Source: Patescibacteria group bacterium
Lineage (GTDB): Bacteria > Patescibacteriota > Patescibacteriia > UBA10025 > JBIOWE01
Reading direction: 5' to 3'
DNA length: 64,000 bases
Assembly (NCBI GenBank): GCA_044868145.1
Contig: JBIOWE010000004.1
Coordinates: forward strand, 73,395-137,394
The position numbers and the translations under genes were made by a program. Under the pieces are notes generated by a model. It saw only the letters and a program-made list of their open reading frames with translations, did no database searches and was not told the DNA's origin. Each line of letters begins with the position of its first letter. The first letter of the stretch is position 1. Positions 572 through 59,820 of this stretch are shown in pieces.

Positions 572-600
572 GTGAAGCAAAGCGTTTTGCTTCACTTGTT
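572..600 (+). terminator. Hairpin gtgaagcaaa/tttgcttcac downstream of the hydroxylase gene; weak T tract
   Basis: 9-bp inverted repeat with a 4-nt loop about 80 nt after the stop codon. Confidence 0.3.
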
Positions 601-754
601 GCCGCGACCCACTGAAATACGGCTGTCAAAATTCTCCAACCTCCGGAGGCCGGACTCCCCGCATAGTCGCTTCGCGTATAGCGACGTGGTCGCAACGCAA
701 CTTTACGTCACTCCCTGCGGGGTAAACGAACCGACAATTTCTACAAACCTCTTG

Positions 755-826
755 CTCCGGGGGCGAGATTCGAACTCGCGGCCAATCGCTTAACAGGCGA
801 TCGCTCTGCCTCTGAGCTACCCCGGA
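755..826 (-). tRNA. tRNA-Asn (anticodon GTT)
   Basis: Manual fold gives acceptor UCCGGGG/CCCCGGA with U1-A72 and U8 A9. D stem GCUC/GAGC, anticodon stem AUCGC/GCGAU with loop CUGUUAA, T arm GCGAG-UUCGAAU-CUCGC and discriminator G, as in bacterial tRNA-Asn. No CCA is encoded. Confidence 0.8.
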
Positions 827-928
827 GCAAGAAGTTCGATTTTATTTTTTTCAAAAATACTCTTATCAACTCTACCATTGCTTGCCCCACCGAATGGCGG
901 GGAGCTATCGCGGAGGTTAGTAGATTTT

Positions 929-5083: not shown

Positions 5084-5098
5084 AATCGGAGGCGAGAG
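5084..5098. repeat. Direct repeat AATCGGAGGCGAGAG, identical to the 3' end of tRNA-Ser plus 3 trailer nt (second copy 5233..5247)
   Basis: Perfect 15/15 identity read directly from the sequence. The copies are 149 bp apart, with three GC-rich hairpins between them. Confidence 0.8.
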
Positions 5099-5235
5099 TC
5101 CCGCCACGAGGGCGGGATTTCGGTCGCCTAATGGCGACCTCAAGATTCTTCACTTTTTAAGAATTCGGAGAGGGTGGGATTTTCCGCCAAAGGCGGATCC
5201 GCCGTAGGCGGAGAACCCTGTCCTTAACCTGGAAT

Positions 5236-5923: not shown

Positions 5924-8302
5924 CTACCTTCGTTCGGCGCTTTTTATCGCCAGCGTTGTCTTGATAACCGTGTCCGGGTTGAGTGAAATGGAATCAATGC
6001 GTTCGCGCGCCAGGAATTGGGCAAATTCCGGAAAGTCGGATGGCGCTTGGCCGCAAATACCGATCTTGATTTTGTTTTTGCGGGCGGCGCGTATAACGTC
6101 GCGGATCAGCGTTTTGACGGCAGCGTTCCTTTCATTATAAATGTGGCTGACCAGTTCCGAATCGCGATCAACGCCCAAGGTAAGCTGCGTTAGGTCATTC
6201 GAGCCAATGGAAAACCCATCGAAAATTTTGGCAAATTCATCCGCAAGAATCACGTTGGAAGGAATCTCGACCATAACGTAGACGTCCAGTCCATTCTTGC
6301 CTTGCACAAGCCCGTATTTTTTCATTGTCGCGATCACTTTCTTGCCTTCTTCAACGGTTCGGCAAAAAGGCACCATCACTTTAACGTTTGTCAGCCCAAT
6401 TTCGTTGCGTACTTTTTCAAGCGCTTTGCATTCAAGCGCGAACGCTGGCTCGTATTCTTTACTATAATAGCGGGACGCGCCGCGCCAACCAATCATCGGG
6501 TTGTCCTCGACGGGCTCAAACTGTTTCCCGCCGATCAGGTTCGCGTATTCGTTCGTTTTGAAGTCTGATAGACGCACAATAACGTCGTTCGGGTAGAACG
6601 CTGCGCCGATTGTTGCGACTCCGGCCGCAAGTTGGTCCACAAAAAATTGCGTTTTGTTCGCGTATCCCTTTGTCAGCAGATCGATTTGCCGTTTAGCGTG
6701 TTGGTCCTTCAGGCGCCTGTACTGCAATAACGCTTTTGGATGTATTTTGATGTATGAAGCAATAATAAATTCCTCACGCGCTAGCCCAACCCCGTCATTC
6801 GGAATAAAGGAAAGTTGAAACGCGAGCTCCGGATTCCCAACATTCATCATAATCTTCGTGCGTGGTCGTTTCATTCCTTTCAAATTAGTGCGTTGCACGC
6901 GGAACGGCAACAAACCTTTATAGACGATCCCTTGTTCACCCTCGGCGCAGGAAACGGTTATCGGTTGCCCGTTTTTGATTTTCCTCGTGCCCGTCCCAGT
7001 ACCCACTATGCACGGTATACCAAGCTCTCGGGAAATGATGGCCGCGTGGCACGTCCGGCCGCCGCGGTCGGTGATAATGGCGGACGCAATTTTCATAATC
7101 GGCTCCCAGTCCGGATCCGTCATGTCCGTCACGAGCACCTCGCCCTTCTTAAACGTACCGATCTCTTTTGGACTCAGGATAATGTGCGCTTTGCCCGCCC
7201 CGATCTTCGAGCCAACAGATGCGCCAGTGATCACAACGGCACCACGATGGCCTAACACATATTCTTCGTAGACGCTCATGTCGCGGCCGGACTGTACGGT
7301 TTCCGGTCGCGCTTGGATTAGATACAACTTGCCATCACGCCCGTCTTTCGCCCACTCCATATCCATGGGCTTACCATAATGTTCTTCAATGGTCACGGCA
7401 TGTCGTGCGAGCTCTAGTACTTCAGCATCAGACACGGAAAAACGTTTGCGGTCTTTGTCGGTGACGGGTACGACTCTTGTAGGCTTTGGCCCGGTCGCAT
7501 AAATCATTTTTACGCGCTTCTCCCCGAGCTTCCGCGAGAGAATCGCAGAATATCCTTTTTTCAGTGTTGGCTTAAACACATAGAACTCATCTGGAGTCAC
7601 TGCGCCCTGCACGATCGTTTCGCCCAAACCCCAGGAAGCGTTAATAACCACTGAGTTGCGAAAGCCGCTTTCCGTGTCTATGGAAAACATTACACCCGAC
7701 GTGGCGAGGTCGGAACGGATCATTTTTTGCACACCGATCGAAAGCGCTATTTTGAAATGGTCGAACTTTTTATCGTGCCGGTATGAAATTGCACGATTCG
7801 TAAACAACGAAGCAAAACATTTTTTGCACGCCTCAATGAGCGCTTGTTCCCCGCGGATGTTTAAATATGTTTCCTGCTGTCCGGCAAACGACGCATCCGG
7901 TAAGTCCTCCGCCGTGGCGGAAGATCGGACAGCCACGTCAGTATTCGCTCCGTACTCGCGGCAAAGCGTACGATACGCTTTCGCGATCGTCTCCTCCAAC
8001 TCTTTCGGCAAGGGCTTACTTAATATAAGACTGCGCACGCGGCTGCCGCGGCTGAACAAATCGCGGATATTCTGGGTATTTAGACCCTGCAAAATTCTTT
8101 TTATTTCTTTCTTTAATTGCTGTTTTTCGAGGTAAAAACGATACGCGCTTGCGGTCACGGCGAACCCGTCAGGGACGCGAACGCCTTTCCCGGTCAGCAT
8201 ACGGTACATTTCTCCGAGCGACGCGTTCTTGCCTCCGACAAGCGGTACGTCTCGCACGCCAATCTCACGAAACCACAAAATGAATTTACTCGATCTTGCC
8301 AT
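5924..8302 (-). CDS. ppsA: Phosphoenolpyruvate synthase (pyruvate, water dikinase)
   Basis: 792 aa. N-terminal ATP-grasp PEP-utilising enzyme motifs (GGKNASLGEM), a central phosphohistidine domain (GGRTCHAAIISRELGIP) and a C-terminal PEP-binding TIM barrel. Confidence 0.85.
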   Translation of the reverse strand: MARSSKFILWFREIGVRDVPLVGGKNASLGEMYRMLTGKGVRVPDGFAVTASAYRFYLEKQQLKKEIKRILQGLNTQNIRDLFSRGSRVRSLILSKPLPKELEETIAKAYRTLCREYGANTDVAVRSSATAEDLPDASFAGQQETYLNIRGEQALIEACKKCFASLFTNRAISYRHDKKFDHFKIALSIGVQKMIRSDLATSGVMFSIDTESGFRNSVVINASWGLGETIVQGAVTPDEFYVFKPTLKKGYSAILSRKLGEKRVKMIYATGPKPTRVVPVTDKDRKRFSVSDAEVLELARHAVTIEEHYGKPMDMEWAKDGRDGKLYLIQARPETVQSGRDMSVYEEYVLGHRGAVVITGASVGSKIGAGKAHIILSPKEIGTFKKGEVLVTDMTDPDWEPIMKIASAIITDRGGRTCHAAIISRELGIPCIVGTGTGTRKIKNGQPITVSCAEGEQGIVYKGLLPFRVQRTNLKGMKRPRTKIMMNVGNPELAFQLSFIPNDGVGLAREEFIIASYIKIHPKALLQYRRLKDQHAKRQIDLLTKGYANKTQFFVDQLAAGVATIGAAFYPNDVIVRLSDFKTNEYANLIGGKQFEPVEDNPMIGWRGASRYYSKEYEPAFALECKALEKVRNEIGLTNVKVMVPFCRTVEEGKKVIATMKKYGLVQGKNGLDVYVMVEIPSNVILADEFAKIFDGFSIGSNDLTQLTLGVDRDSELVSHIYNERNAAVKTLIRDVIRAARKNKIKIGICGQAPSDFPEFAQFLARERIDSISLNPDTVIKTTLAIKSAERR

Positions 8303-8826: not shown

Positions 8827-9290
8827 ACAACACCTCCCCTCTGATTAGTTCGAGATAGGAGCGACCGCCCGAACGACAGCGCATAGCCAGTGATTATAGC
8901 GATAAAAACAAAAGTGATCGGCCGGGCAATCAAGAAGAAGATGCTCCACCAGGTATGATACCAAATTATTTCAAAGAGAGCGAGGAAGACACCGGAAAAA
9001 AAGCCGCAGACTCCCGCCACAGCAGAGGCTTCCTTCCAGCCCATACGCGTGAAACGCCAAGAGAGCATCACGAAGACGGCGACCGGTATGACCCATTCAA
9101 GAAAGGCGTACCGATCGATAATAATAATCACGGCTTCAAGGATGACGATGAGCACAGCCCAAAACCAAACCCGCCTACCGTAATACGCGACTGGCTTGCC
9201 GGCAAGCATTGCGCCTGCTTCTCTTTCATATTCAAGCCTCACGTTATCATCAACCATGTCTCCATTATAGCGCCATGGTAAAACCGACAC
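8823..9290 (-). CDS. Hypothetical multi-pass membrane protein
   Basis: 155 aa with several hydrophobic helices. It overlaps the downstream gene by 4 nt (ATGA), which suggests an operon. Confidence 0.4.
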   Translation of the reverse strand: MSVLPWRYNGDMVDDNVRLEYEREAGAMLAGKPVAYYGRRVWFWAVLIVILEAVIIIIDRYAFLEWVIPVAVFVMLSWRFTRMGWKEASAVAGVCGFFSGVFLALFEIIWYHTWWSIFFLIARPITFVFIAIITGYALSFGRSLLSRTNQRGGVV

Positions 9291-9447: not shown

Positions 9448-11137
<1,690 letters not shown>

Positions 11138-22970: not shown

Positions 22971-23257
22971 TTAATAAGGTTTAACAAGGAGGTTCGACTC
23001 TTTACCCCGCAGAGCGAACGAAGTGAGCTTATGCGGGGCCGCCTTCGGCACCATTGATAAATCTAGAGTTTGAGAGGTCCGCCTGTCTCGCCGGAGCCTG
23101 GCGAAGGCGAGAAGTCCTCTTCCCGGCATTAAAACGAGGCAGAATGTGGACACGTTTATACAAATAAGTTGTATGGGCAATAATCGCGCTGCTCGCGCTT
23201 GCCAGCCAGAGGAAAAAATCAGTACCATAATTTAATAAACAAGAAAGAACTGACAAC

Positions 23258-56472: not shown

Positions 56473-56572
56473 CCCACCACTAATTAATAACCACGAATGA
56501 ACACAAATAATTATACACTAACCTATACGATGTTGGAATTAGTGCAAATTAGTGAAATAGATTCGTGGTGGG
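56473..56572. repeat. metK upstream region carrying the 16-mer ATAGATTCGTGGTGGG (56557..56572, identical to the groEL spacer) and its split inverted partner CCCACCAC-TAATTAATAA-CCACGAAT (56473..56498) in the 5' UTR
   Basis: Exact identity and the inverted-repeat relationship read directly from the sequence. A TATAAT -10 box (minus strand, plus coordinates 56509..56514) lies between the two copies. Confidence 0.7.
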
Positions 56573-56699
56573 ATTACAAATAGACCTAGCGATTGCGCAA
56601 TGACGCAATCTTTTTCCCTGCTGTTTTGCGGTGCTTCTTGAGAGCAACTTTTTGCTTTTTGTTCATGGTTTTCTTGATAGACTTATTACTCATCAATGC

Positions 56700-56858
56700 C
56701 CTCGACAGGAATCGAATCCCGTACAAATTCGCTCCGCTCATTTTACGGGACATGCCTGAATCCCAGGCTTCGTCCCGCCACGTAGTACGTGGCTCCGCAA
56801 CAAACCTTTGCCCCTGCCGAGAGTCGAACTCGGATTTCCAGCTTCGCCCCGCCACCTA
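56700..56858 (-). other. Two tandem degenerate tRNA-like 3' fragments (T arm plus acceptor 3' strand, each ending GGGCA), each preceded by GTGGCGGGRCGAAGC
   Basis: On the minus strand, 56786..56858 reads GGTGGCGGGGCGAAGC...CCGAG-TTCGACT-CTCGG-CAGGGGCA and 56700..56785 reads CGTGGCGGGACGAAGCC...ACGGGATTCGATTCCTGT-CGAGGGCA. No matching 5' acceptor strands are present. Confidence 0.35.
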
Positions 56859-56930
56859 TGCCCTCGGCGGGAATTGAACCCACATCTCAAGCTTCGGAGG
56901 CTTGCGCTCTATCCGTTGAACTACGAGGGC
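56859..56930 (-). tRNA. tRNA-Arg (anticodon CCG)
   Basis: Acceptor GCCCUCG/CGAGGGC. D stem GUUC/GAGC. Anticodon stem CAAGC/GCUUG with loop CUCCGAA. T arm GUGGG-UUCAAUU-CCCGC. Discriminator A. The gene sits inside a perfect 21-bp inverted repeat (56840..56860 / 56924..56944). Confidence 0.75.
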
Positions 56931-56976
56931 ATAGGTGGCGGGGTCTCCGTTCGCTACGCTCACTCCGAGAGGCGTG

Positions 56977-57699
56977 CTAGCTTCCGTTATTTTTTAAAAA
57001 CTTGGATAGCCGTATAACGTCCGCCGGATTGCCGAAATCGAGCCAGTAGTCGTTGAGAATCTTCACTTTCACCTTGCCCTGCTCTGCAAGCGTAGTTACG
57101 GCATCGGTGAGATAGTACTCCCCGTTCGGCTGCCTTGGAACGTTCTGAATGACATCAAAGATCGCTGGCGTGAATTTGAATAGCGCGGTGTTGATGACCG
57201 TACTGCCCACGTCTTCCTTGGGCTTTTCGATAATCTTCTTCAATTTCATGTCGTTATCATACAGCAGAACGCCGTACTTTTCCGGATGTTCGTGCTTGAT
57301 GCCCGCGACATACGAATAGTCATCGTCAATGCGGAGCGAGGTAAGATCCTCGGGGGAATAGAGATTGTCGCCGGCGACCGCAATGAACGGTTCTTCGCCG
57401 ACTATTTTCTCTACCGCCCGAATGGGTATCGCTGTGCCATACAAATCTTCACCAAGAATCGCATATTGATTGACGATCGTCAGCGGGAACGGATGCTGCC
57501 CCGCGAAATCTTCAATGTATTCGTGCTTATGGCCGACGACAATAATAATTTCCTCGAACCCGGCCTTTCGCAAATTTTCAATTAAATAATATAAAAACGG
57601 CTTGCCATTCACGCGAATCATGTGCTTCGGCTTGTTCTTGGAAAGGTGCTTCATCCGAGTCCCTTTGCCCGCAGCCGAGATCACCGCTTTTTTTATCAT
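56977..57699 (-). CDS. Sugar-phosphate nucleotidyltransferase (glucose/mannose-1-phosphate NTase family)
   Basis: N-terminal GXGTRX motif (AAGKGTRMKHLSKNKPKHM) and a Rossmann-like fold. Length is 240 aa. Confidence 0.75.
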   Translation of the reverse strand: MIKKAVISAAGKGTRMKHLSKNKPKHMIRVNGKPFLYYLIENLRKAGFEEIIIVVGHKHEYIEDFAGQHPFPLTIVNQYAILGEDLYGTAIPIRAVEKIVGEEPFIAVAGDNLYSPEDLTSLRIDDDYSYVAGIKHEHPEKYGVLLYDNDMKLKKIIEKPKEDVGSTVINTALFKFTPAIFDVIQNVPRQPNGEYYLTDAVTTLAEQGKVKVKILNDYWLDFGNPADVIRLSKFLKNNGS

Positions 57700-59540: not shown

Positions 59541-59637
59541 ACTGTGGGGCAGGCGCCGTGACCTCCCCTTCGGACGAGTTTTTTATTAGACAAGGATAAT
59601 TAAAAGTGATACTTTTAAGTCACAAAAGGAGGAAAAA

Positions 59638-59784
59638 TTGAATCAGATCATTCATGGTTTTGAAGAAGCTTTGAAAGACTTTGTGGGCGCTTTTACCCCA
59701 CTCACGATTGCCAGCACCTTGATCCTTGCCCTTGCATTTACTTTTATCATATGGATTCTCGTCAAGAAAGGGATCATAAAATAA
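59638..59784 (+). CDS. Unannotated small membrane protein (48 aa, TTG start)
   Basis: Ribosome-binding site AAAGGAGG 5 nt before the TTG. A single hydrophobic helix LTIASTLILALAFTFIIWILV. Followed directly by a terminator. Flanked by 24-nt direct repeats. Confidence 0.35.
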   Translation: MNQIIHGFEEALKDFVGAFTPLTIASTLILALAFTFIIWILVKKGIIK

Positions 59785-59808
59785 AACTCGTCTTCGGACG
59801 AGTTTTTT
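59784..59808 (+). terminator. Rho-independent terminator: stem actcgtc/gacgagt, loop ttcg, then T6
   Basis: Perfect 7-bp stem followed by TTTTTT, only 12 nt before the uvrB ATG. Confidence 0.65.
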
Positions 59809-59820
59809 GTTAGACTACAA

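Follow-up and report, generated by a model that had tools for sequence, protein, structure and literature searches.

A tRNA gene that is followed by incomplete versions of itself raises the question of how the fragments arose and whether they still serve any purpose. The case analysed here is a 64,000-nucleotide stretch of a contig from a Patescibacteria group bacterium (GenBank assembly GCA_044868145.1, contig JBIOWE010000004.1, positions 73,395 to 137,394; hereafter the window, to which coordinates refer unless stated otherwise). In it, a gene for tRNA-Arg(CCG) is enclosed in a long inverted repeat and followed by two tRNA 3' half units and a very short open reading frame (ORF), all on the minus strand. 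An earlier note, made from the letters alone, had drawn attention to this arrangement. We give a probability of about one half to the reading that the locus combines a working tRNA-Arg(CCG) gene with dead partial copies that arose by repeated local duplication or replacement, through template switching. The locus is genomic debris of repeated rearrangement, not a new kind of RNA.

The live tRNA gene and its half-copies

The live gene (56859-56930; 72 nt, no encoded CCA) is functional by the agreement of ARAGORN, which calls it at 56858-56931, of Rfam, whose family RF00005 matches 56859-56930 with 67.3 bits over model positions 1-71, and of its fold. Around it, a repeat finder detects an inverted repeat of 20 nt with 100% complementarity (56847-56866/56924-56943). 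The corresponding 20-bp helix is composed of the 7-bp acceptor stem and 13 further Watson-Crick pairs, in which the leader arm CCCCGCCACCTAT (56931-56943) is joined to the trailer arm TAGGTGGCGGGG (56847-56858) and the discriminator A56859, together ATAGGTGGCGGGG, without any G-U pair. The probability of 13 such pairs in succession by chance is about 0.25^13. The cloverleaf is kept atop the 20-bp stem in the predicted fold (z = -8.0), and the next longest continuous leader-trailer extension found by a script among 41 tRNAs from all fetched loci is 6 bp. The tRNA is thus embedded in an acceptor-extending inverted repeat, as the earlier note had it, and the repeat is perfect; the measured length is 20 bp, not the 21 bp claimed.

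The gene starts 45 nt past the stop codon of an NTP-transferase gene, and the rest of this leader, between the stop codon and the palindrome arm (56944-56976), holds AGTGAGCGTAGCGAA, which might conceivably be a further tRNA-derived fragment. Because no promoter-like site occurs between the NTP-transferase gene and the tRNA gene and the two lie so close together, the tRNA is probably excised from the operon transcript. The helix is probably, at most, a double-strand processing site that would free the tRNA from the mRNA. It may equally well be a recent by-product, since its extension is entirely Watson-Crick and absent from the relatives, and since pairing of the leader to the acceptor end hinders or slows bacterial RNase P (PMC9433436). 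With 13 Watson-Crick pairs of 13 and no G-U, a recent copy made at the DNA level fits better than long selection at the RNA level.

The trailer is followed by unit 1 (56809-56846), an intact, indel-free tRNA 3' half covering tRNA positions 35-73 and recognized by a 5'-truncated Rfam match, by alignment and by the fold of a chimera. It reads CGAA GCTGG AAAT CCGAG TTCGACT CTCGG CAGGGGC A, in which CGAA leads into the 3' strand of the anticodon stem; the variable loop has 4 nt, the T arm is perfect, and the 7-nt acceptor strand is followed by the discriminator A. With the searched sequence truncated so as to begin with the unit, Infernal matches it to positions 33-71 of the tRNA model with no indel (22.4 bits, E 0.003), and a 72-nt tRNA-Arg(CCG) fold, with two defects in its stems, is obtained for the chimera of the live 5' half with unit 1. 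Its identity to the live tRNA is 72%. In the T stem, CCGAG/CTCGG as against GTGGG/CCCGC in the live gene, three of the five pairs are changed and all five still pair.

Unit 2 (56697-56772) is also a tRNA 3' half, as judged from alignment, fold and relatives, and is split by a 38-nt block. Unit 2a (56755-56772; CGAA GCCTG GGAT TCAGG), identified by alignment and by comparison with a syntenic relative, L091, runs from the 3' part of the anticodon loop through the 3' strand of the anticodon stem and the variable loop to the 5' strand of the T stem. Unit 2b (56697-56716; TTCGATT CCTGT CGAGGGC A), identified from L091 and another relative, L082, comprises the T loop, the 3' strands of the T stem and the acceptor stem, and the discriminator. 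Its identity to the live tRNA is 79%, and unit 2 also carries a 1-nt insertion in the T loop. The block between them (56717-56754) ends in a second T-stem 5' strand, ACGGG; when exactly these 38 nt are removed and unit 2 is joined to the live 5' half, the cloverleaf of a 72-nt tRNA-Arg(CCG) is restored. The block also holds AATGAGCGGAGCGAA, which resembles a tRNA D-loop/D-stem/CGAA and is identical at 13 of 15 positions to leader 56950-56964, a match on which we do not rely, its chance expectation being about 0.1.

Alignment sets both units on tRNA positions 35-73 in direct orientation, with a local alignment score against the tRNA 3' half of 32 (maximum of 300 shuffles, 28) and identities to the live tRNA of about 72-80%. 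Neither is called as a tRNA: ARAGORN reports only four tRNAs in the window (Asn, Ser, Leu and Arg), and Rfam at E<=10 finds the live tRNA alone at this locus and no family except tRNA. Both units lack a matching 5' acceptor strand ahead of them. The earlier note was therefore right that two tRNA 3'-half units lie 3' of the live gene, that the first T arm is intact, that 5' acceptor strands are missing and that the units are not ordinary tRNAs left unfolded. Its description needs correction for unit 2, in which the half is split by the block. Lineage-specific, partly disrupted and partnerless, the two units gave no sign of any activity and are predicted to have no function as tRNAs.

The copies are arranged head to tail with gaps of 12 nt and 36 nt. 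The longer gap is a spacer (56773-56808) in which the trailer motif appears as AAGGTTTG and a palindrome, GCCACGTA-C-TACGTGGC, spans 56777-56793 with GGGA behind it. With its 1-nt centre, this palindrome repeats the arms on either side of the live tRNA in an 'empty' form, in which a C/G exchange has been compensated. The trailer arm TAGGTGGCGGGG doubles as the left part of the repeated junction ahead of unit 1. Within the window, the 15-mer GTGGCGGGRCGAAGC is found at 56841-56855 and 56767-56781 (minus strand) and nowhere else, and this direct repeat extends to 16 of 18 positions (56858-56841/56784-56767). Both units have in common the junction GTGGCGGGR-CGAAGC, which falls at anticodon-loop position 34/35, and the novel head-to-tail junction TA[G/C]GTGGCGGG[G/A]CGAAGC is repeated with 16/18 identity and a 74-nt period. 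No dispersed copies of the units were found, their occurrences in the window being confined to this locus, and the suggestion of a SINE-like or dispersed tRNA-derived repeat falls with that.

Gene order in relatives and the microprotein gene

The history of the locus can be read in part from its relatives. In L091 (GCA_043798785.1) the order is RuvA-FemAB-NTP_transferase-tRNA-Arg(CCG), and the microprotein ATG discussed below follows the tRNA by 30 nt. In the window, it is the terminal GGGCA of unit 2 that stands exactly 30 nt before the conserved ATG (56666). Unit 2 also agrees with the L091 tRNA in a strand of the anticodon stem (GCCTG), in the core of the T stem (CAGG/CCTG) and in the acceptor strand. 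By this comparison, the 3' half of the ancestral tRNA-Arg stood where unit 2 now stands, and the live gene, about 160 nt upstream, is a replacement copy. In two further relatives, L082 and L084, tRNA-Arg(CCG) lies in the same gene neighbourhood, behind an extra PGM gene; the last 26 nt of unit 2 (ACGGGA plus unit 2b) are identical at 24 of 26 positions to the T arm plus acceptor of the L082 gene. The half-units are absent from all three relatives. Past the tRNA and the microprotein gene, the gene contents of the window and of L091 diverge, and in L091 a gene for an IS481-family transposase stands behind the microprotein gene.

L091 carries a rearrangement of its own: a 73-nt tandem duplication (L091 3510-3674), 100% identical, that consists of 58 nt of leader and tRNA-Arg positions 1-15. 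The two copies are parted by a 19-nt GC hairpin, CCCCGACGCGCTAGTCGGG, similar to a hairpin within the leader itself, TTCCGACCGGAGCGTCGGAA. This indicates that the same gene duplicates locally without a mobile element. A metagenome search with a 30-mer from the tRNA returned five distant tRNA-Arg loci, none with half-copies. The tRNA-Arg(CCG) genes of three distant Patescibacteria loci, L085 (4320-4435), L086 and L089, are flanked by AAAATCGCG...CGCGATTTTTT, a pairing of leader and trailer that includes an A-run and a T-run and recalls a bidirectional terminator looping out the tRNA; the sequence downstream of the gene is wholly different among the three.

The short ORF 3' of the units was set down in the earlier note as a basic ORF of 35 codons and probably not a gene. 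It is a conserved gene (56586-56666) for a microprotein of 26 residues, MNKKQKVALKKHRKTAGKKIASLRNR, plus stop, supported by homologues and by the pattern of codon changes. Translation starts at the second ATG (56666) of the 35-codon ORF, and the N-terminal extension is unconserved. Of 27 codons compared with L091, 11 are identical, 11 synonymous and five non-synonymous; this pattern of purifying selection, together with conserved synteny with tRNA-Arg, marks the ORF as coding. A profile search gave three homologues (P0121-P0123), one of them on L091, and an exhaustive profile search of the representative library brought the family to at least 22 clusters, in which the pattern M[NY]KKxKxAxKKHRKxxGKKxxSLRxR is invariably matched at the C-terminal end of the ORF as called. 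These clusters, the codon changes and the synteny overturn the earlier verdict. No Shine-Dalgarno sequence precedes the conserved ATG in the three loci read, and neither Pfam nor NCBIfam matches the small ORF. The single match among solved structures, over the full length, is PDB 9fi8_HN (E 1.6e-5); this chain of 9FI8 is the 26-residue mS161 of the small subunit of the Toxoplasma mitoribosome, which hints that the microprotein may be a ribosome-associated peptide. A bS22-like identity was backed by no search and was dropped.

Other tRNA genes and surroundings of the locus

Local alignment of each tRNA of the window to its flanks gave downstream partial self-matches at all four (Arg, p<0.01; Ser, p<0.01; Leu, 0.02; Asn, 0.05), and the same alignment gave none at eight other isolated Patescibacteria tRNA-Arg or tRNA-His loci. 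Self-copies are solid at Arg and Ser, marginal at Leu and weak at Asn; the idea of two clear 3' copies at every tRNA had to be toned down in the light of these statistics.

At tRNA-Ser, whose features lie at 5084-5122 and 5184-5211 (minus strand), a 21-nt copy of the gene's own 3' end stands downstream and is split by a 17-nt palindrome-forming insert (5098-5114). The split copy reads CGAAATCC[CGCCCTCGTGGCGGGAC]TCTCGCCTCCGATT, with CGCCCTCGTGGCGGGAC as the insert and the breakpoint at position ~60/61. It is preceded by three hairpins of the form CCGCC-N3-8-GGCGG, the only ones in the window (0.22 expected), all downstream of tRNA-Ser. The exact 11-mer CGTGGCGGGAC is common to the junction of unit 2a and the tRNA-Ser insert, 51 kb apart, with a chance of about 1e-4. 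A long leader-trailer helix recurs at tRNA-Asn (755-826), where CGAACTTCTTGC and GCAAGAGGTTTG form 12 pairs, two of them G-U, over the span 744-838 (minus strand; fold z -5.5). Helices of 19-20 bp are thus found at two of the four tRNAs.

The trailers of tRNA-Asn (600-760, minus strand) and tRNA-Leu (22971-23130, plus strand) contain a homologous module of ~130 nt, with AGGTTT, a T-arm-like GGTTCG, the hairpin TTTACCCCGCAG...TATGCGGGG (a 12-mer and a 9-mer exact) and GTCCGSC...CCGGAG..TGG.GAA; Rfam at E<=1 finds no family except tRNA in these trailers. The motif AGGTT(T) stands 1-9 nt from the 3' end of tRNA-Asn, tRNA-Ser, tRNA-Leu and unit 1 (744-750, 5226-5230, 22978-22983 and 56802-56807, respectively), and the live tRNA-Arg has TAGGTGG in its place. 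CCA is encoded by none of the four tRNA genes of the window and by neither relic unit; it is encoded by the tRNA-Arg(CCG) genes of all three syntenic relatives. Apparent further matches at 6891-6919 and 9013-9020 lie inside coding regions and were rejected as chance.

The host is a Patescibacteria-type bacterium with a small genome; the databases hold no close relative of it, and the nearest identity for the neighbouring NTP-transferase is 61%. The called genes with Pfam tags, which cover window positions ~1-59,700 (the last ~4 kb hold UvrB and two unscreened ORFs), are all housekeeping genes, among them groES/EL, dnaG, sigma-70, uvrABC, RNase J, EF-P, SSB, S6, recA, ftsK and rpoBC. No integrase, transposase or phage gene is among them. 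Extending the window by 9 kb added no tRNA. Upstream of metK, a 35-nt sequence that ends in ATAGATTCGTGGTGGG (56538-56572) is repeated directly with 83% identity at 11103-11137 (plus strand), 45 kb away, and an extra copy of GTGGTGGG stands directly ahead of the metK start; the repeat may be a common operator or promoter element. A MetK search of genome contigs returned distant homologues only (<=68% identity), with no common context. Upstream of uvrB, hairpins with an A-run, a GC stem and a T-run, such as AAAACTCGTCTTCGGACGAGTTTT, occur at 59563-59591, 59787-59815 and 59783-59806. Ordinary bidirectional intrinsic terminators are therefore present in this genome, and they are unlike the tRNA-linked palindromes.

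Origin of the half-copies

On the reading that we prefer, the ancestral order was NTP-transferase, tRNA-Arg(CCG), 30 nt and the 26-codon microprotein gene. The tRNA gene would then have been partly duplicated or replaced again and again, as strand or template switching took place at its own stem-loops; the breakpoints would lie in the anticodon loop (34/35) and the T loop (53/54), and short GC-rich palindromes would have been created or deposited at the junctions. The copy beside the microprotein gene, unit 2, would have lost its 5' part and been interrupted, its function being taken over by the replacement copy upstream; unit 1 would be an additional orphaned 3' half. The lengthening of the acceptor stem may go back to one such event, which copied the leader in inverted form, perfectly over 13 bp. 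The relics would ride passively on a transcript of the ruvA-femX-NTP-transferase operon that continues through the tRNA as far as the microprotein gene. Strand or template switching is taken as the likeliest mechanism because the junctions are palindromic and the breakpoints all fall in loops: 15/16 in L091, 34/35 in units 1 and 2a, 53/54 at the end of 2a and ~60/61 at tRNA-Ser.

Quasipalindrome or template-switch mutagenesis and hairpin-associated tandem duplication are established replication-error mechanisms. The locus resembles their products in the extension of its stem by perfect Watson-Crick pairs, in the palindrome with a 1-nt centre, in head-to-tail duplications with breakpoints at stem-loop edges, and in the 73-nt duplication of the relative with its junction hairpin. 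Several observations weigh against such an origin. The events are repeated and confined to tRNA genes, which sets them apart from these mechanisms. The fully paired T stem of unit 1 is unexpected for a neutral orphan: simple local duplication fails to predict this pairing-constrained T arm, whose source was probably a tRNA that stayed functional for long (a paralogue, another isoacceptor or foreign DNA). The 11-mer CGTGGCGGGAC at two tRNA loci points to a portable or binding-selected sequence instead of independent events. A junction in the anticodon loop with identity to the 3' end and beyond is the geometry of a class-I integrase att site. With 61% as the closest identity of a neighbouring protein, the order of events given here is tentative, and the tendency across the genome is that of the four tRNAs examined in it.

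The most serious rival, if on balance an unlikely one, is a series of tyrosine-integrase scars, in which an attP carrying the tRNA-Arg 3' half (35 to 73 and beyond) integrated twice at the anticodon loop, pushing the old halves downstream, and the elements were then almost entirely deleted, leaving their last 10-25 nt (...GTGGCGGGR). The anticodon loop is a classical crossover sublocation of tRNA-targeting integrases. Units that begin at 34/35 and stay identical through the 3' end agree with this, as does the T arm of unit 1, which looks foreign yet pairs perfectly, as expected of a half borne by an element. At tRNA-Ser, the shared 11-mer adjoins a 3' fragment whose start is in the T arm, which is the second classical sublocation. 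Gene order breaks past the NTP-transferase gene, where PGM is present in L082 and L084 and missing from the window and L091, and the window and L091 differ again downstream of the microprotein gene. Fragments of tRNA genes left by integrated elements are well documented (Islander, PMC4383910; PMC9897764), and the present ones are like them in being direct-orientation partial 3' copies downstream of an intact tRNA, in having their start in the anticodon loop for Arg and in the T arm for Ser and extending through the 3' end, and in numbering more than one, as with tandem islands. Unlike them, the copies have no island or integrase between or near them, only gaps of 12 nt and 36 nt. No element intervenes, and none of the Pfam-tagged genes is an integrase, transposase or phage gene. 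Viral sequences were searched with the T arm and acceptor of unit 1, with the 3' end of the live tRNA, with the junction plus T loop and with the Asn/Leu hairpin, which gave nothing or chance matches to coding DNA; IMG/VR yielded no related att sequence. Two independent near-total deletions would each have had to spare the same short end, and identity between the fragments and the live half is 72-80%, not near-complete, which age could explain. GC-rich junction palindromes set the locus further apart from att-site fragments, and integration does not account for the zero-loop palindrome or for the perfect inverted repeat that the leader forms with the presumed end of an element. With all four tRNAs scarred, a very small genome would have undergone many integrations, all since purged. 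Of the integration and excision scars proposed in the earlier note, the direct-orientation remnants of tRNA-Arg 3' halves are real; scars in the sense proposed are not supported, given the short gaps, the divergence and the lack of an integrase among the Pfam-tagged genes, and no cognate attachment site turned up in IMG/VR.

Palindromes of the form CCCGCC(AC)...(GT)GGCGGG suggest a related alternative, which we hold improbable: a miniature portable element, or the footprint of hairpin-targeted break and repair at tRNA loops, each event duplicating part of the tRNA. Like REP and MITE palindromes, they are short, GC-rich and strictly intergenic, with three related copies in 64 kb; unlike these, they have a very low copy number, no target-site duplication and no associated transposase, and every copy in the window adjoins a partial tRNA copy, one of them enclosing the complete tRNA. 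If this were true, one intact copy would survive each event, the self-copies at all four tRNAs would be accounted for, and the by-product tRNAs in 19-20-bp helices would need a nuclease specific for double strands before RNase P and RNase Z. It is no more probable that the locus is a functional RNA in which the 20-bp helix was selected as a stem for processing, by RNase III for instance, and releases a CCA-less tRNA from a polycistronic transcript, the downstream hairpins serving as processing or stability signals or as the 5' untranslated region of the microprotein gene. The 12-bp extension of tRNA-Asn includes two G-U pairs, tolerated in RNA but not in DNA; the tRNA-Arg of L085, L086 and L089 also pair leader with trailer, in different sequences; a tRNA gene with no promoter-like site ahead of it must be cut from an mRNA; the 30-nt spacing from the tRNA 3' end to the microprotein ATG is conserved; and the 3' 26 nt of unit 2, ending in 2b, are better kept than the rest of that unit. 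Against this, units 1 and 2 are missing from every relative examined, and their absence from L091, L082 and L084, together with the lack of an Rfam family, argues that they are not a conserved RNA. Nor is there an extended stem at tRNA-Ser or tRNA-Leu of the window or at tRNA-Arg of L091, L082 and L084. The extension of the live tRNA, all Watson-Crick, looks recent, and bacterial RNase P is known to be hindered when a leader pairs with the acceptor end (PMC9433436). That strain variants were collapsed into a false tandem array or palindrome is very improbable, even for a metagenome-assembled source, in which tandem repeats and palindromes are prone to assembly error. An independent Logan assembly of run SRR30692719 reproduces 56480-57000 identically, palindrome included, and agrees base for base over 4.7 kb (0 mismatches in 4723 bases between the 414-kb NCBI contig and the 124-kb Logan contig); the array is therefore no assembler quirk, and copies at 72-89% identity are too diverged for collapsed alleles. 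Least credible of all is a split, permuted or alternative-3'-half tRNA, with orphan halves joined in RNA through GTGGCGGG/CCCGCCAC complementarity as in the split tRNAs of Nanoarchaeum. A GC-rich sequence does stand ahead of each 3' half, and its complement ahead of the live tRNA, but the sole right-strand CCCGCCAC lies directly 5' of a complete tRNA instead of ending a 5' half, and the window holds no orphan 5' half. Unit 2 is broken by its 38-nt block, two stems of unit 1 mismatch when it is joined to the one 5' half available, and the organism is bacterial by gene content (RuvA, UvrA, UvrB, UvrC, FemX, Mur ligase, sigma-70).

Group I introns sit in anticodon loops of Patescibacteria tRNA genes (PMC13011429). 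The locus has in common with them the phylum and insertion at the anticodon loop, and differs in that the live tRNA is uninterrupted, the inserts are tRNA halves and the 5' exon would end in C, not U; no match to Intron_gpI (RF00028) was found at E<=10. A T-box, a transfer-messenger RNA (tmRNA) in one or two pieces, a signal recognition particle RNA and a group I intron were all rejected for want of a match and for unfit anatomy, ARAGORN finding no tmRNA and Rfam no match to one.

Orphan fragments of tRNA genes are a known kind of feature, and the locus is a variant of that kind. For annotation, local duplication as the source would mean that orphan tRNA halves beside a live gene arise without a mobile element, and synteny with a distant relative reveals which copy is ancestral and which a replacement. 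All four tRNAs of the window are trailed by fragments of themselves and by GC palindromes; should this pattern extend to the whole genome, it would point to a lineage-specific instability or targeting at the tRNA genes of a very reduced genome, where helices of 19-20 bp would constrain the excision of CCA-less tRNAs from operon transcripts. The most useful by-product of the analysis is the conserved basic protein of 26 residues, which lies outside Pfam and NCBIfam and resembles a peptide modelled in the small subunit of a mitoribosome.

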